Source: a virus (taxonomy: Duplodnaviria > Heunggongvirae > Uroviricota > Caudoviricetes > Straboviridae). Taken from it: a DNA stretch of 64,000 nt. The notes below the pieces were generated by a model that worked only from the letters and a program-made list of their open reading frames with translations, did not search any database and was not told where the DNA came from. The stretch lies in IMG/VR virus record IMGVR_UViG_3300011728_000017, one strand, 5' to 3'. Below are positions 8,533 through 41,822 of the stretch, piece by piece (the first letter of the stretch is position 1; every line of letters starts with the position of its first letter). The position numbers were made by a program, and so were the translations under genes.

Positions 8533-8558
8533 TTCCTTAACACAACGTGGAGTACGTT

Positions 8559-9620
8559 ATGAAGTACAAATTTGATAAAGCTGTCGTGATTGGCAGATTC
8601 CAACCTTTCCATAATGGTCATGCGAAGATGATCAGCGAAGCGCTGAAAGAATCCGAAAAGGTCTATATCCTGATCGGTTCCTCTAATGCATACCCTAATG
8701 TGATTAACCCGCTTACCGCCGCCGAACGTAAAAGAATGATCCTGCGTTGGATTGCGGTTAGCCTTAAATCCCACGAAACCGAACGAATTCAGTTCGCTGA
8801 AATTCCAGATTCGCTGTATAACGACGAAAAATGGAAATCAAATGTTCGCCTGGCGATTGATGAACAGAAAGGGGATCGGGTTGCTATCTATGGATTCTAT
8901 AAAGATAGCGATTCCTACTGGCTTAAAGCTTTCGGATGGGAACACCGCGCAGTATACCCTGTTCTGGGTAAAAAAGGCGGGTGTATCAATGCGACTGATC
9001 TTAGAAAGATTATTTTCGCACATAAAAACGGATGGGATAACGCTATCTCTGATTATGTTCCGCAAACCACTGTAGATTTCATTGATATCTGGATGCGGTC
9101 GGATAACTTCTGGCGTATCGAACATGAATCGCGGAAGTGGGAAAGCGAGTTAGAAAAATTCATGGGATATCCATACCCGGAAGCGTTGAACTGCTGTACG
9201 GCTGACAGTGTTGTGGTCTGTAATAACCATATTTTGCTGATCCGTCGTAAGTATGCCCCTGGTCAGGATGCTCTTGCTCTGCCCGGTGGACACAAAAACG
9301 CTAATGAAACGTTCCTGGACTGTGCGATTCGTGAACTGTTGGAAGAAGTGCGAATTAAAGTACCTGAAAAGGTTATTCGTGGTTCTATCCGCAATTCTAT
9401 GCTGTTCGATCATCCCCGTCGGTCTGCGTACTTCTCAAAACCGACTGTAGCGCAGTATATCAAGCTCGAACCAAACCCGGACGGTAGCCTACCCCGAATC
9501 ATGGGAGGCGCTGACGATGCGGCTGATGCGTTCTGGATGCCACTCCATGATGCTATCCGCAATCAAAACCAGTTCTTTGATGATCATTTCCAGATCATTA
9601 CTGCATTTACTGGTATCTGA
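8559..9620 (+). CDS. natV: Bifunctional nicotinamide-mononucleotide adenylyltransferase / Nudix ADP-ribose pyrophosphatase (NatV-like)
   Basis: N-terminal VIGRFQPFHNGH (HxGH NMNAT motif) and ISW-like region; C-terminal Nudix box GGHKNANETFLDCAIRELLEEV; RBS ggag upstream of ATG 8559. Confidence 0.85.
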   Translation: MKYKFDKAVVIGRFQPFHNGHAKMISEALKESEKVYILIGSSNAYPNVINPLTAAERKRMILRWIAVSLKSHETERIQFAEIPDSLYNDEKWKSNVRLAIDEQKGDRVAIYGFYKDSDSYWLKAFGWEHRAVYPVLGKKGGCINATDLRKIIFAHKNGWDNAISDYVPQTTVDFIDIWMRSDNFWRIEHESRKWESELEKFMGYPYPEALNCCTADSVVVCNNHILLIRRKYAPGQDALALPGGHKNANETFLDCAIRELLEEVRIKVPEKVIRGSIRNSMLFDHPRRSAYFSKPTVAQYIKLEPNPDGSLPRIMGGADDAADAFWMPLHDAIRNQNQFFDDHFQIITAFTGI

Positions 9621-9644
9621 TAAAAAAGTATTAGAAAACTCTTA

Positions 9645-9700
9645 AAAGCCCTTGACGAAAGTCAGGGGCTTTTGTTATTTTACCCGCATGGAAACGAACC
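9645..9700 (+). promoter_or_regulatory. PeSL-like cassette (stem-loop aagcccTTGACGaaagtcaggggctt, -10 TTATTT, GGAAACGAACC leader)
   Basis: Same architecture as the other cassettes. Confidence 0.6.
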
Positions 9701-9709
9701 GGATTGAAC

Positions 9710-10006
9710 ATGGATCCCAATCAAAAATTCCCTTATACACTCGTTAAACGTCCGTTATGGGCTGGCGGAAATCCTGTTTCACTTTGGCAGGTAATAGACG
9801 CTAATGAAGCTGTATTCGCGGATAAAGAAATATACGCAGTAGAATTAATCGATCTTGAAAACAGTATTATCGTTCTCGAAGATATTAAAACCAAAAAGAA
9901 ATATTCGTTGACTTCAAATGATGATTCCCGTAAATTCAACGTGTACTGGAAATCAAATAACGAATTCGAAAAGGAAACTGATAATGTTAATCCCATACTT
10001 TACTAA
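9710..10006 (+). CDS. Hypothetical protein
   Basis: ATG 9710 (MDPNQKF...); the ORF track starts on TTG at 9704. Confidence 0.5.
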   Translation: MDPNQKFPYTLVKRPLWAGGNPVSLWQVIDANEAVFADKEIYAVELIDLENSIIVLEDIKTKKKYSLTSNDDSRKFNVYWKSNNEFEKETDNVNPILY

Positions 10007-10508
10007 ACAACAAAAAGTCGATTCCCTTACTTTTATTAAACCTGGTGATATTGTTTCAATTCATACTGACGTTGATGTAAAAGATGGATTTCAAATTGTA
10101 TCTTTTGCATTAAGCGGTGACGCCAAAGCAATTACTTTGGTAAAAGATGATATTACTATTTTGTTCAAGATCGATAATGGCAATCGGGATTGTTTGTTGA
10201 TTAGTGACCGAATTGAACCATTTAAAATTACCGGAATGCGTAAAGGCGCTAAAGCTGTTTCGTTAGACGATTTTACATATAAGTCTTCGAAAATGAAACC
10301 GACGTTAATTCCTGTAGCACCGGGTGATATTCTGACGACCAACAATAAAAAATTCGTTGTTGAATTTATTGCCTCTGATGGTTCGATTGTTGCTAAAGTT
10401 GAAGGAAAAAGTCAGGCTAAAATGACAACTGAATGTGTCATGCTCAAGCATTCTGATGTTTCTCTCGTTAAAGCGCTGTATGAAGAAATCACCTGGAAAT
10501 GGAAATAA
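9984..10508 (+). CDS. Hypothetical protein
   Basis: ORF 9918..10508; internal ATG 9984 (MLIPYFTKQQ) minimises the overlap. Confidence 0.45.
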   Translation: MLIPYFTKQQKVDSLTFIKPGDIVSIHTDVDVKDGFQIVSFALSGDAKAITLVKDDITILFKIDNGNRDCLLISDRIEPFKITGMRKGAKAVSLDDFTYKSSKMKPTLIPVAPGDILTTNNKKFVVEFIASDGSIVAKVEGKSQAKMTTECVMLKHSDVSLVKALYEEITWKWK

Positions 10509-10513
10509 GAACA

Positions 10514-10786
10514 ATGAAAGTTAAGTCTGTATTGATGTCCGAAATTGTCAAAATTAATGGTCATGATTATTTTGTTGCAGAGATTAACACCAAAGGGAAC
10601 AGAGAGATCCTTGAACTGGATATTGTTAAACCTGCGGAAGGACAACCGCTAACGATTGAATACGTTCATAACACCAAAACAGGCGAAGTCTCGCATAACG
10701 GCGATAAAAGCATGGCTAGTAAACTAATTGATGTATTGCAGTTGTTTTTCTGTCAGAAATCATTAAAATGGAAATTATCTTACTAA
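10514..10786 (+). CDS. Hypothetical protein
   Basis: ATG 10514 (MKVKSVLMSEIV). Confidence 0.45.
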   Translation: MKVKSVLMSEIVKINGHDYFVAEINTKGNREILELDIVKPAEGQPLTIEYVHNTKTGEVSHNGDKSMASKLIDVLQLFFCQKSLKWKLSY

Positions 10787-10796
10787 GGAAAACAAA

Positions 10797-11198
10797 ATGA
10801 CTGATATTAGAGATTTAACTGATGTGAAGGCAGGCGATACCCTGTTTGATCCTGGCGAAAGTCGATATAATAACCGCAAACATGGTCAGCCTCGCCTTTT
10901 TCATGTTTTTAAAGTGGCACGTCAATATCTGTATGCTTCCACTGAGAAAGATGTTACAGACATTAAACACTGGTCGGTTGAAAAGGTTGACCGTAAAAGC
11001 GGATTGACTGCCGGATCTGGCGGTGGCTGGGGCGGGTTTTATTTGTATCGCAGTGAAGCGGTACATAGCGAAATTAAATACCGGGCGGAACTATGCGACA
11101 AGATCAGAAAAGAATTCGGTACTAATTCCGTTCGTGTTCCAGAAATTACTACCGACGAACTTCGTGGGATTGCAAAAACATTAGGGGTTGAATTTTGA
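10797..11198 (+). CDS. Hypothetical protein (Gly-rich patch SGGGWGGF)
   Basis: 133-aa ORF with RBS aaggaaa. Confidence 0.5.
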   Translation: MTDIRDLTDVKAGDTLFDPGESRYNNRKHGQPRLFHVFKVARQYLYASTEKDVTDIKHWSVEKVDRKSGLTAGSGGGWGGFYLYRSEAVHSEIKYRAELCDKIRKEFGTNSVRVPEITTDELRGIAKTLGVEF

Positions 11199-12193
11199 AA
11201 ATTGTAATGGAAACGGTATTCGGTTCCCATCTTTATGAACTGAACACACCAACAAGCGACAAGGATTATAAAGGGATCTTTCTCCCACATCCTCGCGATA
11301 TCCTGATGGGTACTGCACCGAAAACCATCGACACGTCAACGGGCAATAAAAACTCTAAAAACACCGTAGACGACGTTGATCGTCAGATGTATAGCCTGAC
11401 TAAGTTCATCAGCCTTGCGTGTGATGGTGACACCGTAGCGCTTGATATGCTTCATGCCGGGGATAACAAGCTACTGGCTAACTCTGAGATCTGGCAGTAT
11501 ATCCGCACTAACCGTAGCCGATTCTACACCACGGAATTAACTGGCCTGTTCGGTTATGTTCGTAAACAAGCCGCGAAATATGGCGTTAAAGGATCCCGAC
11601 TGGCTGCACTGCGCGAAGTGTATGACGTGTTGCAAAAAATCGACGATGCCCGCAAAATGAATCTCCCTCTTAATCTGGGGGAAGCGACTCACCGGGTTAA
11701 AGTTGGCGAAGTGTCGCATAAATTCCCAACTAACGAATTCTGCCGATTCACTCGTGACGAAACGCTGAAATCAGGTTGTCAGGACTTCTATGAAGTGCTG
11801 GGGCGTAAATTCCAATCCACGATCACAGTAGCGGAAATGAAAAAGTCCGTGTACAAGCTCTGGGATGAATACGGCGAACGCGCCCGACAAGCCGAAGCTA
11901 ACAACGGGATCGACTGGAAAGCGTTGTCTCATGCGTTGCGTGGCGGTATTCAGCTAATCCAGATCTATAAGCACGGTGATATCACATATCCTCTGCCGGG
12001 TAGCGCTTTCCTGAAACAGGTTAAAGCTGGTAATGTACCGTTTGCGACTGTACAGGAAGAACTTGAATCCGTTATGGGTGAAGTTGAACGCCTCGCGGCT
12101 GTTTCTAATTACCCGAAAGAAGTGGATCGTAAATTCTGGAATGATTTTATCGAACGTGTTTATTCTGAACACGTAGTGGGATATTACAAATGA
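11195..12193 (+). CDS. Predicted nucleotidyltransferase (minimal NTase / Pol-beta superfamily fold)
   Basis: N-terminal FGSHLYELNTPTSDKDYKG = GS-x(11)-SDxD NTase signature, with later acidic residues (DDVDRQ, DGDTVALD); the start is TTG 11195 or ATG 11207. Confidence 0.55.
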   Translation: MKIVMETVFGSHLYELNTPTSDKDYKGIFLPHPRDILMGTAPKTIDTSTGNKNSKNTVDDVDRQMYSLTKFISLACDGDTVALDMLHAGDNKLLANSEIWQYIRTNRSRFYTTELTGLFGYVRKQAAKYGVKGSRLAALREVYDVLQKIDDARKMNLPLNLGEATHRVKVGEVSHKFPTNEFCRFTRDETLKSGCQDFYEVLGRKFQSTITVAEMKKSVYKLWDEYGERARQAEANNGIDWKALSHALRGGIQLIQIYKHGDITYPLPGSAFLKQVKAGNVPFATVQEELESVMGEVERLAAVSNYPKEVDRKFWNDFIERVYSEHVVGYYK

Positions 12194-12714
12194 ATGATAT
12201 TCAAAAAACAGCGCTTACACTGATCAATGATAACGGCGGGAAATATGATTTCGGTGAACTGATCAATGGTATCAGGGCGCTGGAACATGTTAATTATAAC
12301 AAAGTAGTAGATGAATTACAGAAGTTGTTACAGCTTAAATTTATCACGGTTTATTTCCCGCAACCTTTGCAGTCTGCTAAACAATCTGTTGTTTTAACTG
12401 GTGCGGGTGCTGAACAACATCGCAAAAACATAAAAAGTCAAGAAGTGCGTACAATTGATGATATGGATCGCGCAATCGTTCTTAACCCAGGTTCATCACA
12501 TGAAATTACGTTGAGTGATTACATAGATCATAAAATCAAAGAAGCGCTGAACAATCTTCGTTTATCCGTGGATACCCATTCTAAATCAAATTACGTCGGG
12601 TGTAATGGAGAAGGCGGAATGCATCAGGATTCGACTGTAGTGAAAATCCAGTTGCTCGCTGATATTGCTGATGAAGAATACCTTATCAGCGAAACTGATT
12701 TTGAGATCGGCTAA
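12190..12714 (+). CDS. Hypothetical protein, translationally coupled to the NTase
   Basis: ATGA overlap with the upstream gene. Confidence 0.5.
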   Translation: MNDIQKTALTLINDNGGKYDFGELINGIRALEHVNYNKVVDELQKLLQLKFITVYFPQPLQSAKQSVVLTGAGAEQHRKNIKSQEVRTIDDMDRAIVLNPGSSHEITLSDYIDHKIKEALNNLRLSVDTHSKSNYVGCNGEGGMHQDSTVVKIQLLADIADEEYLISETDFEIG

Positions 12715-12947
12715 TGGCTATCCTTTTTGATGTGATGTGTGGCGTGGTCGATGCTAAATTTTATCACCTAACCGACAACCAGCGTCGATTCATTAAAAAT
12801 AAAGTATCCAATATTATTCGACGTGCTAAACACGACGTGTATCATGTTTGGATTGATAACAAACCGATGTGTTATGCGCAGTATGCAGCAAACTACGATT
12901 TTAAAGTAGGTGAACATACGGTTTACGTACATATTCAGGTAGACTAA
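12714..12947 (+). CDS. Hypothetical small protein
   Basis: taATGg coupled start; 77 aa. Confidence 0.45.
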   Translation: MAILFDVMCGVVDAKFYHLTDNQRRFIKNKVSNIIRRAKHDVYHVWIDNKPMCYAQYAANYDFKVGEHTVYVHIQVD

Positions 12948-12972
12948 GCCCCTTCGGGGGCTTTTTATTTGG
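12946..12972 (+). terminator. Terminator aagcccc-ttcg-ggggctt + TTTTATTT
   Basis: UUCG hairpin plus T-tract. Confidence 0.6.
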
Positions 12973-12980
12973 GAGAAAGA

Positions 12981-13892
12981 ATGAGAATTATCGACCTATG
13001 CGCGGGTGTAGGTGGAGTCAGATTAGGGTTTCAACAGGCGTTTGGTGAAATCGAATGTCTTTTAACATCTGAGATTGATAGCCACGCGCAAGAAACATAC
13101 CGCAAAAACTTCGGGCCGGATAATATTCAAGGTGATATTTTCGCTATCAACGAAAATGATGTACCGGATCACGATATCCTGTTAGCCGGGTTCCCTTGTC
13201 AGGCTTTCAGTAAGGCCGGGAAGAAATTAGGTTTCAGCGATCCCCGTGGTACGATCTTCTTTGAGATCATGCGAATTATCCGCGCTAAAAAGCCCTCTGT
13301 GCTGTTTTTTGAAAACGTGCCTGACCTACTTACCCATGACGACGGGAACACGTTCAGGACGATTTACGGGCTTCTGGAGGGGGAAGGGTATGATGTGTAT
13401 TACCAGGTGCTAAACACGAAGGATTTTGGATTGCCCCAGCGAAGGAAGCGAGTCTTTATTGTTGCTTTCAGGGATCCTGTTTTCTTCTCGTTCCCGGTTC
13501 CTCCATGCACCCCAACCAGGGTAGGCGATCTGCTGGAAAGTGATGTAAGTGATTCATTCACTCTTACGGATAAGCTGTGGGCTGGCTTCCAGTACCGCAA
13601 GGAACGAAATAAGGCAAACGGTAAGGGTTTTGGCTATCAGTCCGTTACAGAGGATTCTGCGTATACCGCTACCCTGCCTGCCCAATATTGGAAAGACGGG
13701 GTGCAGTGTCTTGTATTGCAGGAAAGAAAGAACCCCAGAAGATTAACGCCTCGTGAATGTTTTCGTTTGCAGGGATTTCCTGAATCCTTTATTATTCCTG
13801 ATAGTAAAAAACAAGCGTACAAACAAGCCGGGAATTCTGTTTCGGTTCCTGTTATCCGTGCTATTGCTGAACAAATTAAGAAGGTTTTATGA
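12981..13892 (+). CDS. dcm: DNA (cytosine-5)-methyltransferase
   Basis: Motif I IDLCAGVGG, motif IV GFPCQAFS, ENV motif FFENVPDL, C-terminal target-recognition region and QAGNSV; RBS gggag upstream of ATG 12981. Confidence 0.88.
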   Translation: MRIIDLCAGVGGVRLGFQQAFGEIECLLTSEIDSHAQETYRKNFGPDNIQGDIFAINENDVPDHDILLAGFPCQAFSKAGKKLGFSDPRGTIFFEIMRIIRAKKPSVLFFENVPDLLTHDDGNTFRTIYGLLEGEGYDVYYQVLNTKDFGLPQRRKRVFIVAFRDPVFFSFPVPPCTPTRVGDLLESDVSDSFTLTDKLWAGFQYRKERNKANGKGFGYQSVTEDSAYTATLPAQYWKDGVQCLVLQERKNPRRLTPRECFRLQGFPESFIIPDSKKQAYKQAGNSVSVPVIRAIAEQIKKVL

Positions 13893-14146
13893 TGAAAATT
13901 ATTAAAGACCGTCCTGCTAATTCTGATTATGATTTTAAGATCAATCCCGCGTTTTCGGCGGAGGCACATAACCCAGTGATCCGGGCTGATGCTGATAATC
14001 CGGTATTCAAATGCGAAACTCAATCAAAGATGCTTTCGCCGGAAGCATGGAAACGGCTGAAGGAAGCGATTAACGCGCCTGCTGAACCTAGCCAGCAACT
14101 CATTGATTTGATGAACAGAAAACCCCGGTACGAAAAAAGTTTTTAA
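13889..14146 (+). CDS. Hypothetical protein
   Basis: ATGA-coupled to dcm. Confidence 0.45.
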   Translation: MMKIIKDRPANSDYDFKINPAFSAEAHNPVIRADADNPVFKCETQSKMLSPEAWKRLKEAINAPAEPSQQLIDLMNRKPRYEKSF

Positions 14147-15453: not shown

Positions 15454-17658
15454 ATGACTATTTCAAATATCGAATTTAAAAATGCTGTAGCAAAACCTAC
15501 CCCTACCAACCACGTATTTGTATGTGACGTTTCTGGTTCGATGTATAACGAACTTCCGCGTATCCGTACACATCTGAAAAATAATCTGGCTACTCTGGTA
15601 AAACCTAACGATACCGTATCGATCCTGTATTTTGCCAGCAAAGGCCAATATGGTTCTGTATTCGTCGGTGAGAAGATTAAAACGATCTCCGACCTGTCTG
15701 GTATCAATGATGCTATCGACCGCTTCCTGCGTCCTACAGGCTGTACTGGCTTTGTCGAACCGCTTAACCTTGCCGTACAGGTAGCAACCGATCTACAGGC
15801 CGACAATGGCAATCTGAACAGCCTTATTTTCCTGACCGATGGTTATGATAACTGCTGGCGTACCGACGATATTCTCAAAGCATGTTCCGCGCTTCCGCTT
15901 GCGTTTAATAATATTGCTTTCCTGGAATACGGTTATTATGTAAACCGTCCTCTTCTGGAAAAAATGGCAGAAGCAACAAACGCACTGCATAAATTCGTTG
16001 AAGGTTTCGATCAATATGAACCTGCGTTTAACGATATTATTAGCGCACAGACTTCCGCGCGAATTGAAGTAAATGTTGGTGATGCGACTCATGCAATTTA
16101 TATTGATGAAGGTCGTGTTTATGTTGTTAATGCCGCAAATGGTATTGCTCTGATCCCGGAACATATTAAAAACGTTTGGGCTATCGGTGAAAACGCTATT
16201 AACGATGTTGACTCATTTGATCCGGTAAATGACCAACAGGTATTATATGTTGTGCTTTATCATGCGCTGCAAACAATGAATCCTGATCTGGCGTGGAAGG
16301 TTCTGAAAAAAGTGGGCGACGTGCGACTGATTAAGGCGTATGATAACTGCTTTACAAAACAGGATTATTCAAACGCTAAAGATCTGATTTCAAGCTGTGT
16401 TGTTGATCCAGCGCAACGCCTGGTAGACGGTGTTGATTACAATATGGTTCCAGACGAAAACGCATTCACCCTGGTTGATGCTCTTGAACTGCTGGCAGAA
16501 TCTGACACCGAAATCGATCTGAGTTCTCCTCATTGGGCTTACAACCGTACCGGGCGTGTGCGTACCCAGAAAGACGATACCACGCTTGATGAACTGTCTG
16601 CACAGATCGCGAATGCATCGACCGCAGAAGAACGGAAAGAACTGGCGGCTAAAATGGTTGATTACGAAGTGTGGAAACCAGAATTTAACCAGACCACAAC
16701 AAAAGTTTCACTGAAACATTTAGTGGGCAACAGTTCCCGTCCGAATATTTCGATTAATACGGATCTGGCTGGGTATGTTGAAATTCCTGCTGGCTATCGT
16801 CAGAAATTTGGTTTGCCGAAACAAATCGAAACCAAACAGGTGCGAAACTTTACCATTGTCAAAGACGGTATTGTTAACGTGAAACAGTTGCCTCTGGAAA
16901 CTGATATTCAGACGCTTAAAAATCTCCGTGCTTCTGGCCTGACAATTAAGCCTCTGGAAAAAATCGGTGAAGATCGTATGTCGGTTCTGGTTGATTTTAC
17001 CAGTCTTCCGCTGATTAACCGGGCCATGACACGCGGGATCTCTGGTAAAGAGTATGTTACCGACTGTGTTCATCTGGAAGTGCTGAAAGCACGTCAGAAG
17101 GTGCTTAAATTCCTTCGTGATGGTTCTATCGGTCGTGGTAATGCTAAAGGACTCGCGGAACTGTACGGTGAAGATGCTGCTACCTGGTTATCTGAACAGG
17201 GTATTCGTGATTACGGTTTCTCTCCTAAAGTAAGCACCGGGGAATCTACCGATGTTTATATGTCGAAAGAGCTAAACGTAAAAATTAAGGGTGCTAGTTC
17301 TCTTCCGGCTGTTGCGGCAACTGTTAAAAAACGTGACGAAAATAAGAAGAAGCTTAACGCTGCTGACCAGATGATTATTTTTGCTTACGATTCTGTACAA
17401 AAGGAAATTAAAGAGCTTGACAAGGATCAACTCGTCAAGTATCTTGAAGTTGAGACACGAAATGCGATCAACTCCGTTCGTTCTCTTAATAACCGCCTTT
17501 CTCGCGTTATGTATGGTATTGTCGTTGGTCATGCGTGGTTCGCAGATCTCGACTTCGAAGAAACCGAAGTAACTGTACCCGGCAAGGAAGTGAACGAATT
17601 CTTCAAAGATGATTTTGTTTGTTCTATCGTCCTGGAAGAGAAAGAAATTAAAATTTGA
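15454..17658 (+). CDS. von Willebrand factor A (vWA) domain protein, 734 aa
   Basis: N-terminal MIDAS DVSGSM (DxSxS), T/D residues (FLTDGYDN) and Rossmann-like alternation; long C-terminal region of unknown function. Confidence 0.7.
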   Translation: MTISNIEFKNAVAKPTPTNHVFVCDVSGSMYNELPRIRTHLKNNLATLVKPNDTVSILYFASKGQYGSVFVGEKIKTISDLSGINDAIDRFLRPTGCTGFVEPLNLAVQVATDLQADNGNLNSLIFLTDGYDNCWRTDDILKACSALPLAFNNIAFLEYGYYVNRPLLEKMAEATNALHKFVEGFDQYEPAFNDIISAQTSARIEVNVGDATHAIYIDEGRVYVVNAANGIALIPEHIKNVWAIGENAINDVDSFDPVNDQQVLYVVLYHALQTMNPDLAWKVLKKVGDVRLIKAYDNCFTKQDYSNAKDLISSCVVDPAQRLVDGVDYNMVPDENAFTLVDALELLAESDTEIDLSSPHWAYNRTGRVRTQKDDTTLDELSAQIANASTAEERKELAAKMVDYEVWKPEFNQTTTKVSLKHLVGNSSRPNISINTDLAGYVEIPAGYRQKFGLPKQIETKQVRNFTIVKDGIVNVKQLPLETDIQTLKNLRASGLTIKPLEKIGEDRMSVLVDFTSLPLINRAMTRGISGKEYVTDCVHLEVLKARQKVLKFLRDGSIGRGNAKGLAELYGEDAATWLSEQGIRDYGFSPKVSTGESTDVYMSKELNVKIKGASSLPAVAATVKKRDENKKKLNAADQMIIFAYDSVQKEIKELDKDQLVKYLEVETRNAINSVRSLNNRLSRVMYGIVVGHAWFADLDFEETEVTVPGKEVNEFFKDDFVCSIVLEEKEIKI

Positions 17659-39015: not shown

Positions 39016-39891
39016 TTAAAAATCACCGTAGTTAACTTGCAGACACGGGATTCCATTCATTCGCCACATACCAACAACACTATCGCGATCATCAACCGCC
39101 AGAACTGGACGATATTTAGCCATAATCTTTTCGGTCAAAATTTGTTCTTTGATTTCGATATCGTGTCGATGATCACCTTCTGGACGCATAAAGAAATCAT
39201 CCCATTCAAGACCAAACCGTTTGAGACTAGCAATAGTATCGTGACGACATTGCTGGGTATCTTCCCGGCCTGTAGCAATAACGATTTTCTTACCCTCATT
39301 GCGGTACATCTGCAAAAGTTCCTGGATATGGTAGTTTGCAGGATCGTCGATTACTTTCGTGAAATCATACGGGCTGCGATCACCGATAATCGTTAATGTT
39401 CCATCCACGTCAAAGATCACACATTCAGGCAGGTCAGGATCCATGAAATCTACAGCCGGAATCCACCCTCTACGCAGTCGATATAGTTTATACATATCCC
39501 AGAGACGACTAACAGGCAACGCCTCTATACCGCGCTTATGGTTGCGTCTTAGCAGTTCGACAATAGACACATCAAAGAACTGTTTATGGAAACTCGCTTT
39601 GTACAGTTCTGCGATCTGCTTCCATTTGATTAAATCTTTTTCATGCAGGTTGGTATCATGAACAATGACGTTTTTACCGCTTGTCAGGGCAACTACAACC
39701 GCTTCCTGTTGAATCCTGTTCATGATCTCTTCTTTTTCTTTAGTGAACTTGTAATTCTCAAGACCACCATAAAGAGTTGCGCGAATATCATCGCGGGAAA
39801 CCAGTAAAGTGTTTCCTGATTGTTTGGCTTCTTCTTTCGCCCATGTAGATTTCCCGCTACCCGCCACGCCAATAGTAATAGTCAACTTCAT
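39016..39891 (-). CDS. pseT: Polynucleotide 5'-kinase / 3'-phosphatase
   Basis: N-terminal kinase P-loop GVAGSGKST; C-terminal HAD phosphatase motif VIFDVDGTL; 291 aa (T4 301). Confidence 0.88.
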   Translation of the reverse strand: MKLTITIGVAGSGKSTWAKEEAKQSGNTLLVSRDDIRATLYGGLENYKFTKEKEEIMNRIQQEAVVVALTSGKNVIVHDTNLHEKDLIKWKQIAELYKASFHKQFFDVSIVELLRRNHKRGIEALPVSRLWDMYKLYRLRRGWIPAVDFMDPDLPECVIFDVDGTLTIIGDRSPYDFTKVIDDPANYHIQELLQMYRNEGKKIVIATGREDTQQCRHDTIASLKRFGLEWDDFFMRPEGDHRHDIEIKEQILTEKIMAKYRPVLAVDDRDSVVGMWRMNGIPCLQVNYGDF

Positions 39892-40357: not shown

Positions 40358-40677
40358 TTATCGAATTCCTTCATATACTCGTCGAACGATTTATTGATTT
40401 TGATTTCAACCAGACCGGGTTTCTCGAATAGAAGATGTTTCCGGCCTGCATCTTTCAGCAATTGCTGATCCGCTGCTTTGGCTTCGACATAATAAATCGT
40501 GTTTCCGGTATTGGTTTCTTTTACTGCTTTGATATCCTGATTCAGTTTCGTGATATCTTGTTTCAACTGATTGTTTTCTATCTTCGCGGAGACGGTCATA
40601 TAAAAGAGCGCCGCCAAAGACGACGCAACAATCAAAGGCCATACCAAAGAAGATAGCTTTGGAAAGGCTATATTCAT
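40354..40677 (-). CDS. Type-II inner-membrane protein with coiled coil, i-spanin candidate
   Basis: N-terminal TM, then a coiled coil (NNQLKQDITKLNQDIKAVKE); analogous to T4 pseT.3. Confidence 0.55.
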   Translation of the reverse strand: MNIAFPKLSSLVWPLIVASSLAALFYMTVSAKIENNQLKQDITKLNQDIKAVKETNTGNTIYYVEAKAADQQLLKDAGRKHLLFEKPGLVEIKINKSFDEYMKEFDK

Positions 40678-41822
40678 TTATATTCTTCCGGGTAATATTG
40701 ATCGCAATTTTTAACCATCGTTTCAATGATATCATCAACCAACTGTTGTTTGTCGGTATTAACGAAATAACGCATCATCGGCCCGAAAATGATTTTACCG
40801 TCTTGAGATAAATCAGAACTCAGAGCAACCGCGAAATCCTTACGAGATTTACCTTTGAGGGTTTCAATCGCAGTAAATGCTTTACTGGTAAGACGATTCA
40901 ATGAATCAAGGAACAGGTTTTCGAATGCATCAATTTTCTTTAAAGCAACGATATCATCAATGAATAACTGTTTCAAATCATCAACAGTATTTTCTGCGAT
41001 ATTCATGAACAGATCTTTATTGTTATTGATACTGTCTTTTGTGCGATGAAGATTCACATACCAGTTAGTTTTGATTTTGAAGAAACCAGTATCAGTTTTG
41101 ACTACATATCCTTCAAACCCAGTCATTTCATACACATCAGACACGAATTCTTCGAGACTGTCAAATATAACTGCTTCTTTCTTCACCAGATAACGACGCA
41201 GAATCGGATCATTAAACAGATCTTTATCACTGACGTATTCGCCTGTATCGTTATCACGAACGTTAAGGATCACAACACCCGGCTGTTCGTAGCCAATCAC
41301 TATACGGTTGCTTGGCGAAACATATTCCATGTTCACGGTATAACCATCTTTCACTAGCTCATACAGACGCGCCGCAAACTCAGGATCCTGATGAATCACC
41401 GACATTGCACACATAGCCTGGTCAGAGTTAACAGAGGCTTTTGATTTTGCGCCCAGATAACCGGAATCGTCGAACGTGGAGATCAGGGAACCATCTTCCT
41501 TGATCATAACACTCTCAATGCGCCCAATCTCAGCAGGAGCCTTTTCCAGTGCTTCCCATGCCTTTACTTCGGCATAGTTGAAAAACTTCGCCATAGGGCG
41601 ACTCAGGAGTTTTACAGGGGTATCGTTGTCCATCTGGAACATAATACCACGACATTCTAAAGCACCCGGTTTCAGCCAGTCCGAATATCCAGCCATCCGA
41701 TAAGAGAAAATGCGTACCGGGGTTTGCATCGGGGTTTTCTGGTCAACGAAAAAGAAAGAGTCGTTTTCAGCGCACAGATCAATTAACTGGTTATAAAGTT
41801 CTTCTTGTTTTTCACTCAACAT
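40674..41822 (-). CDS. rnlA: RNA ligase 1
   Basis: Alignable by recall to T4 Rnl1 (gp63): RIFSY..YSDWL.P.ALECRGIMF, KEDGSL (lysine-adenylation motif), EGYV; 382 aa against 374. Confidence 0.88.
   Translation of the reverse strand: MLSEKQEELYNQLIDLCAENDSFFFVDQKTPMQTPVRIFSYRMAGYSDWLKPGALECRGIMFQMDNDTPVKLLSRPMAKFFNYAEVKAWEALEKAPAEIGRIESVMIKEDGSLISTFDDSGYLGAKSKASVNSDQAMCAMSVIHQDPEFAARLYELVKDGYTVNMEYVSPSNRIVIGYEQPGVVILNVRDNDTGEYVSDKDLFNDPILRRYLVKKEAVIFDSLEEFVSDVYEMTGFEGYVVKTDTGFFKIKTNWYVNLHRTKDSINNNKDLFMNIAENTVDDLKQLFIDDIVALKKIDAFENLFLDSLNRLTSKAFTAIETLKGKSRKDFAVALSSDLSQDGKIIFGPMMRYFVNTDKQQLVDDIIETMVKNCDQYYPEEYK

Follow-up and report, generated by a model that had tools for sequence, protein, structure and literature searches.

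The 64,000-nt stretch of Straboviridae DNA analysed here (IMG/VR record IMGVR_UViG_3300011728_000017; hereafter the window, to whose full length all coordinates refer) carries a gene for a predicted 332-amino acid (aa) nucleotidyltransferase (NTase) of the NrdC.11 type of the RlaP family. The gene lies at positions 11195..12193 on the + strand and has a TTG start. It is followed on the same strand by two open reading frames (ORFs) of 174 aa (12190..12714) and 77 aa (12714..12947). An earlier note, based on the letters of the DNA, had placed these three ORFs at 11195-12947, and their positions and strand are confirmed. Directly upstream lies a 133-aa ORF (10797..11198, + strand) with a phage ProQ C-terminal-like domain (PF24203, E 3.8e-14).

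These ORFs are tightly joined. The TTG start of the NTase gene sits on the TGA stop of the 133-aa ORF, giving a TTGA overlap. The same overlap, together with the preceding GGGG, is also kept in Yersinia phage JC221 and Cronobacter phage GAP161, and this conservation indicates that translational coupling reaches upstream too. The TTG start itself is supported by the N-terminus (MK.V…), which is conserved in all homologs, T4 included. At the downstream junctions, for which ATGA overlaps had been described, the NTase and 174-aa genes do overlap in this way, but the 174-aa and 77-aa ORFs meet at TAATG, with a 1-nt overlap. The 77-aa ORF is followed by an intrinsic-terminator-like hairpin (12946..12970, + strand), formed by AAGCCCC-UUCG-GGGGCUU and a subsequent U-run, and the same terminator-like hairpin is found in JC221 after the last small ORF. 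The Dcm methyltransferase gene (dcm; PF00145 in Pfam, E 2.5e-95), which most likely starts at ATG 12981, is indeed the next gene, as had been noted, but the hairpin lies in between, and dcm is therefore a neighbour outside the unit. At the other end, a terminator/promoter-like element at 9643-9681 suggests a single early transcription unit running from ~9704 to 12947.

The 332-aa protein is almost certainly a member of the RlaP family, described in Pfam as “RlaP, RNA repair pathway DNA polymerase beta family” (PF10127). It reaches 37.6 bits against this model (gathering score 23, E 2.7e-9), over profile positions 19-143 of 249. In addition, it matches phrog_388 (“nucleotidyltransferase”) over its full length with an E-value of 1.5e-118, far beyond chance. 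T4 NrdC.11 likewise scores above the gathering score of PF10127, with the same N-terminal match. This T4 protein (NP_049709, annotated as “nucleotidyltransferase”) is 51% identical to the window NTase over 332/336 residues (E 5e-118), which contradicts the statement that T4 proper has no counterpart. Judged by its sequence, the window protein is an ortholog of T4 NrdC.11, within a divergent branch of RlaP. The NTase nature of nrdC.11 was already pointed out in 2006, under COG3541 (PMC1524935), and a viable genome-reduced T4 can lack the region in which the gene lies (PMC9825161).

Relatives of the NTase are widespread. They were found with tblastn in 1,584 of 50,697 phage records, mostly of Straboviridae, and their identity to the window protein is 97.9% in JC221, ~81% in Pseudotevenvirus phages (RB16/RB43/GAP161) and ~51% in T4. 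A HMMER search of 1.84 billion representatives in a library of 50%-identity clusters returned 3,365 relatives at E <= 1e-3, of which 796 at E <= 1e-30. The genes of T4 and of the window share the same conserved motifs, and they also agree in their overall position in the genome, between rI and nrdC in the variable early region. Their surroundings differ: nrdC.11 of T4 has the homing endonuclease gene mobD upstream and the AAA-type nrdC.10 downstream, whereas the window NTase has the ProQ_C-like ORF upstream and the two small ORFs and dcm downstream.

The signature on which the earlier note had built, GS…SDKD of a minimal NTase, is contained in the motif FGSHLYELNTPTSDKDYKG, residues 9-27 of the protein, and is borne out by the family matches above. 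G10-S11 (11222..11227, + strand) correspond to the hG[GS] motif of NTases and D22-K-D24 (11258..11266, + strand) to the DxD metal-binding pair; both are fully conserved in alignments of 35 close and of 51 diverse homologs, the latter sharing 32-51% identity. The 51 diverse sequences show no variation at G10, S11, S21, D22, D24, N56, Y129, R229, H246, R249 and P266, and conservation reaches at least 90% at D60, D62 and D84. Of these, D62 (11378..11380, + strand), located in a predicted strand (residues 61-67 of the AlphaFold2 model), probably provides the third catalytic carboxylate. In the hidden Markov model alignment, D62 pairs with the Asp of the conserved “LD..GWD” motif, the third Asp of canonical RlaP. 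Since G10 S11, D22, D24 and D62 are all present and conserved, the acidic triad is complete, and the gene reads as that of an intact enzyme with a full set of catalytic residues.

The AlphaFold2 model, computed from a 35-sequence alignment (predicted local distance difference test, pLDDT, 85.5; predicted template modelling score, pTM, 0.70), consists of an N-terminal alpha/beta NTase core (~1-110), helices at 116-148 and a helical C-terminal bundle (212-331). A beta-rich insert at ~150-210 is variable and prone to indels. The model ends in a long helix (312-331); in the crystal structure of PfRlaP, a Pseudomonas RlaP discussed below, the final helix packs onto the NTase domain. When the model was compared with the Protein Data Bank (PDB) using Foldseek, the nearest solved folds were the minimal NTases HalB (E 2e-3), 3c18 and KNTase, all of them weak matches. 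Together with the complete acidic set, these top matches agree with the assignment to the minimal NTases of the Pol-beta superfamily. KNTase, one of three groups proposed for a structural comparison, is thus among the nearest folds, but CD-NTases and Cid1 are not. Searches of PDB sequences with the single NTase and with the family profile gave no solved relative, and the chain of PfRlaP was not detected by sequence or by fold in the PDB copies searched.

The genomic surroundings of NrdC.11-type proteins in cells are those of RNA repair. In a scan of one genome per species, full-length NrdC.11-type proteins were found at 80 loci. One of these (L013; NZ_JBHSCL010000010.1, 178,077 bp, in the assembly of Flagellimonas marina) is phage-like: it encodes an 81%-identical NTase and a ProQ_C-like ORF, has the scale of a Pseudotevenvirus genome and is probably a phage genome inside a bacterial assembly, either a contaminant or a carried phage. 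The other 79 loci (L014-L092), with proteins 29-47% identical, were counted; they belong to Desulfobacterales, Nitrospirota, Alphaproteobacteria, other bacteria and a few archaea. Within 6 kb of the NrdC.11-type gene, 27 of the 79 loci encode a canonical RlaP of full length (PF10127, with Pfam E-values as low as 1e-81), and in 25 of the 79 it is located directly 3' on the same strand. Within the same distance, RtcB is found in 10/79, Hen1 in 5/79, T4-type Pnkp in 4/79, RtcA in 2/79 and an Rnl1-like ligase in 1/79; TROVE/Ro60 was identified twice by Pfam. On a Nitrosospira contig (L039:3709-9155), the genes follow each other in the order RtcB-RtcA-NrdC.11-type-RlaP-Hen1-AAA. These neighbourhoods show that the NrdC.11 subfamily itself, beyond PF10127 in general, is embedded in RNA-repair operons. 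The recurrent module of an NrdC.11-type protein and a canonical RlaP may consist of paralogs with different jobs. Fusions of the two genes, which seemed to be present at L070, L078 and L090, were ruled out, as they are long stop-to-stop ORFs in a different frame.

In phages, the distribution is different. Canonical RlaP occurs in 86 phage records, almost all of them from jumbo phages and none from Straboviridae; T4-like phages carry the NrdC.11 type only.

Fold and context together bear on the reading of the protein as a nucleotide-signal enzyme, either a CD-NTase/OAS-like synthase, as had been suggested, or a HalB-like maker of oligo-dA that would keep the Hailong HalA channel closed and act as an anti-defence decoy. 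HalB is the best fold match (PDB 9dbh/9dbj), but it is only 11-16% identical to the window NTase, and the match is confined to the generic NTase core. HalB is a protein of 217 aa, tyrosine-primed, dATP-specific and paired with the HalA channel, and none of these features is evident for the window NTase. Structures of cGAS, DncV or OAS are missing from the top 50-60 fold matches in the PDB, and PADLOC gave no match for the NTase. No effector, Cap or HalA-like gene is found beside it, the neighbours being the ProQ_C-like ORF, the two small ORFs and dcm, and the subfamily at large is surrounded by RNA-repair genes. A signal synthase is therefore highly unlikely. The related proposal of an RNA-tailing enzyme with a Cid1-type fold does not agree with the model either, which gave Foldseek probabilities of at most 0.2 and template modelling (TM) scores of at most 0.15 against poly(A) polymerases, Cid1 and TUTases.

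The activity of the family is described for PfRlaP and PaRlaP, two Pseudomonas proteins encoded between rtcB and rtcA, in a preprint of Carruthers, Fatma and Huang from December 2025 (PMC12776372). Both enzymes attach one or two nucleoside monophosphates (NMP, or the deoxy form dNMP) to RNA 3'-OH ends, whereas DNA and proteins are not modified; the preferred metal ion is Mn2+ or Co2+ (PMC12776372). Their favoured substrate is the 3' end at the nick of a mimic of cleaved tRNA, and pre-treatment with RlaP partly rescues the aminoacylation of a repaired tRNA that is short of one nucleotide (PMC12776372). They also label many cellular RNAs and show little NTP specificity (PMC12776372). The crystal structure consists of an NTase domain and a helical domain, with three conserved Asp residues (PMC12776372). 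RlaP was proposed to be an antidote to “smart” ribotoxins that excise nucleotides, such as RloC and PaOrf2 (PMC12776372), and the same RlaP prediction is found in a jumbo-phage survey (PMC7824862). In the PF10127 network, T4 NrdC.11 was assigned to cluster 5, and PfRlaP and PaRlaP form part of cluster 1a (PMC12776372). The window NTase and the bacterial RlaPs have in common their Pfam family, the set of GS, DxD and D residues and the association with RNA repair, and the AlphaFold2 model suggests a similar architecture, with an NTase domain followed by a helical one. In comparison, the window protein is ~80 aa longer, contains the beta-rich insert and has a divergent C-terminal half.

Putative pathway partners for such an enzyme are encoded in the window. 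A T4-type polynucleotide kinase-phosphatase (PseT/Pnkp) is located at 39016..39891 on the - strand (PF25109, E 3.5e-45; AAA_33, E 1.4e-18) and a T4-type RNA ligase 1 (RnlA, Rnl1) at 40674..41822, also on the - strand (PF20819, E 5.4e-37; PF09511, E 2.8e-22). The classic example of how a phage withstands the anticodon nucleases of its host is the repair of tRNA by Pnkp and Rnl1 of T4. Of the roles listed in the earlier note, RNA repair alongside pseT and rnlA is the one favoured by the evidence, and the NTase is probably, in our judgement, a template-independent RNA 3'-end NTase that adds nucleotides to damaged RNA before ligation by Rnl1. In the proposed pathway, a host anticodon nuclease or another ribotoxin would cut a tRNA and remove one or more nucleotides, as RloC-type “smart” nucleases do. 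Pnkp, as the end-healing partner, would turn the cut ends into 3'-OH and 5'-P. The two-metal site of the NTase (GS / D22-x-D24 / D62) would then extend the 5' fragment at its 3'-OH by one or two NMPs, after which Rnl1, as the sealing partner, would close the break and restore a fraction of functional tRNA. Rnl1 requires 3'-OH and 5'-P ends, as the product of an RlaP would offer them, and the 3'-OH/5'-P chemistry of Pnkp and Rnl1 is compatible with such a product. What the enzyme would act on, how many nucleotides it would add and which biological target it would serve are inferred from the biochemistry of the two bacterial RlaPs.

Several points weigh against this pathway. The biochemistry concerns cluster-1a RlaPs only, and the profile-level similarity to the NrdC.11 type is limited to the N-terminal ~125 residues. 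The C-terminal half of the NTase, including the ~60-aa beta-rich insert, is outside the match to the Pfam model, and substrate specificity may therefore differ. The NTase gene is 27 kb away from pseT and rnlA and on the opposite strand, so that there is no operon link to these genes in the phage. In cells, a canonical RlaP often adjoins the NrdC.11-type gene, which suggests that the paralogs are not redundant and that the NrdC.11 type may have another function. Under laboratory conditions, T4 can do without nrdC.11 (PMC9825161). Finally, the RlaP study is an unreviewed preprint, and its authors leave in vivo relevance and translation competence open (PMC12776372).

In another explanation, the protein is an RNA 3'-end NTase with no part in anticodon-loop repair, and would instead rebuild damaged 3' ends of tRNA in a CCA-like repair or tail host or phage RNAs and so alter their stability. 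The evidence from family and fold holds equally for such an enzyme. The pairing with a canonical RlaP in 25 of the 79 cellular loci implies a division of labour, in which the role of the “missing-nucleotide” enzyme proper would fall, in cells, to canonical RlaP; the C-terminal half and the insert are distinct from canonical RlaP, and the bacterial enzymes act on many cellular RNAs with little discrimination between NTPs. However, canonical RlaP is missing from T4-like phages, and any RlaP function needed there beside Pnkp and Rnl1 must therefore come from the NrdC.11-type NTase. We regard this explanation as possible though unlikely. A similarly low probability is given to the idea that the NrdC.11 type is a functionally distinct second class of RlaP, with a C-terminal half and insert of its own, which would form an obligate pair with canonical RlaP in cells and, in T4-like phages, would have been co-opted to act alone against nucleotide-excising anticodon nucleases such as RloC. 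The members of such a pair could, for example, divide the work by acting on the other broken end, by adding a different nucleotide or by adding a different number of them. A variant that is less likely still has the enzyme produce a HalB-like oligonucleotide, which would interfere with the immunity of the host.

For the two small ORFs downstream of the NTase, the suggestion of a functional operon or a toxin-neutralising pair with it is not supported. The ORFs at this position vary between phages, one of those in the window being a fusion and the other an insertion. The 174-aa ORF consists of the first ~120 aa of a 132-aa ORF and the last ~54 aa of an 88-aa ORF (phrog_7342), fused in frame. It is 81% identical to JC221_069 over residues 1-127, and its C-terminus aligns to JC221_068; relative to JC221, the fusion results from a 137-bp deletion. 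Metagenomic relatives (L007-L010) have the unfused arrangement, with ORFs of 132, 88 and 78 aa. A second fused copy of 174 aa (P0273, 94% identity) exists, so the fusion is no assembly artefact.

In JC221, the 77-aa ORF is missing and the 88-aa ORF is followed at once by the terminator; relative to that phage, the 77-aa ORF represents an insertion. Its family is tiny, with ~5 members (family loci L003:3986-4225, L004:2989-3219 and L006:3956-4189). Homologs are the metagenomic P0122 (74% identity), POP12_159 (57%) and proteins of the Pseudomonas jumbo phages Psa21 and Phabio (44-47%). POP12_159 is also located directly 3' of the NTase in POP12; in Psa21 and Phabio, the homologs precede a radical-SAM-like “Fe-S cluster” gene near tRNA genes, far from the RlaP of these phages. 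In Psa21, the homolog is found 2 kb from an RtcB ligase. A functional tie between the 77-aa ORF and the NTase was considered because of the adjacency in POP12, and rejected: with the absence from JC221 and the distance from RlaP in Psa21 and Phabio, the evidence is too thin. The ORF also gave sub-threshold matches to ToxN (E 0.008) and AbiQ (E 0.0012). Neither the five-member family profile nor the fold search recovered ToxN, and these matches are therefore taken as chance. The AlphaFold2 model of the 77-aa protein (pLDDT 75) gave no significant fold match. In GAP161, the NTase is followed by unrelated ORFs of 80 and 86 aa. The 174-aa and 77-aa ORFs are presumably co-transcribed, lineage-specific small genes and not conserved partners of the NTase.

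This variation also bears on a reading suggested by the fold matches, namely a KNTase/ANT-like nucleotidylation of a small molecule or a protein, for instance the AMPylation of a toxin by an MNT-type antitoxin whose partners would be the downstream ORFs. KNTase and the 3c18 NTase-like protein, both among the nearest folds, act on small-molecule substrates; they show no sequence similarity to the window NTase. The downstream ORFs do not accompany the NTase consistently, and no HEPN or toxin signature was found in them. The protein, with its 332 aa, includes a fused C-terminal bundle, and no R-x4-6-H motif was seen when the alignments were read by eye. Moreover, the bacterial RlaPs did not label proteins (PMC12776372), and the genomic context is that of RNA repair. 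Such an activity is accordingly very improbable.

Upstream, the ProQ_C-like ORF accompanies the NTase in a limited range of phages. ProQ is an RNA chaperone. The ORF lies beside the NTase in JC221 and GAP161 as well, and 400 bp upstream of it in POP12, but it is not next to the NTase in T4 or in the Aeromonas, Acinetobacter, Vibrio and Karamvirus phages. It was therefore rejected as a universal partner of the NTase, its association being limited to the Pseudotevenvirus-like lineage and POP12.

Some other genes in the vicinity are recorded here. At 8547-9620, the window encodes a bifunctional nicotinamide mononucleotide (NMN) adenylyltransferase/Nudix hydrolase (NCBIfam PRK05379-type, E 9.5e-76). 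Phage genes of this kind, which serve the salvage of nicotinamide adenine dinucleotide (NAD), have been linked to countering NAD-depleting defences. Downstream, at 13889-14146, the ATG of an 85-aa ORF overlaps the stop codon of dcm. This ORF resembles the TacA1 antitoxin weakly, with a match that stays below the cut-off (E 7.5e-4); at the same position, JC221 carries a small ORF annotated as “putative homing endonuclease” instead. A 734-aa ORF at 15454-17658, conserved in JC221 and GAP161, shows an N-terminal DVSGS motif that looks like the metal-ion-dependent adhesion site (MIDAS) of a vWA domain.

For the window, the analysis chiefly corrects the earlier picture: a well-conserved T4-family gene encodes the 332-aa protein, which is not a new signalling enzyme, and the supposed three-gene operon at this locus is not a conserved functional module. 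For the family, genomic context ties the NrdC.11 orthologs to the operons of RtcB, Hen1 and Pnkp. The NrdC.11 orthologs, present in ~1,600 sequenced phages, are thereby the obvious candidate for the missing step in the phage answer to nucleases of the RloC type, which also remove a nucleotide.

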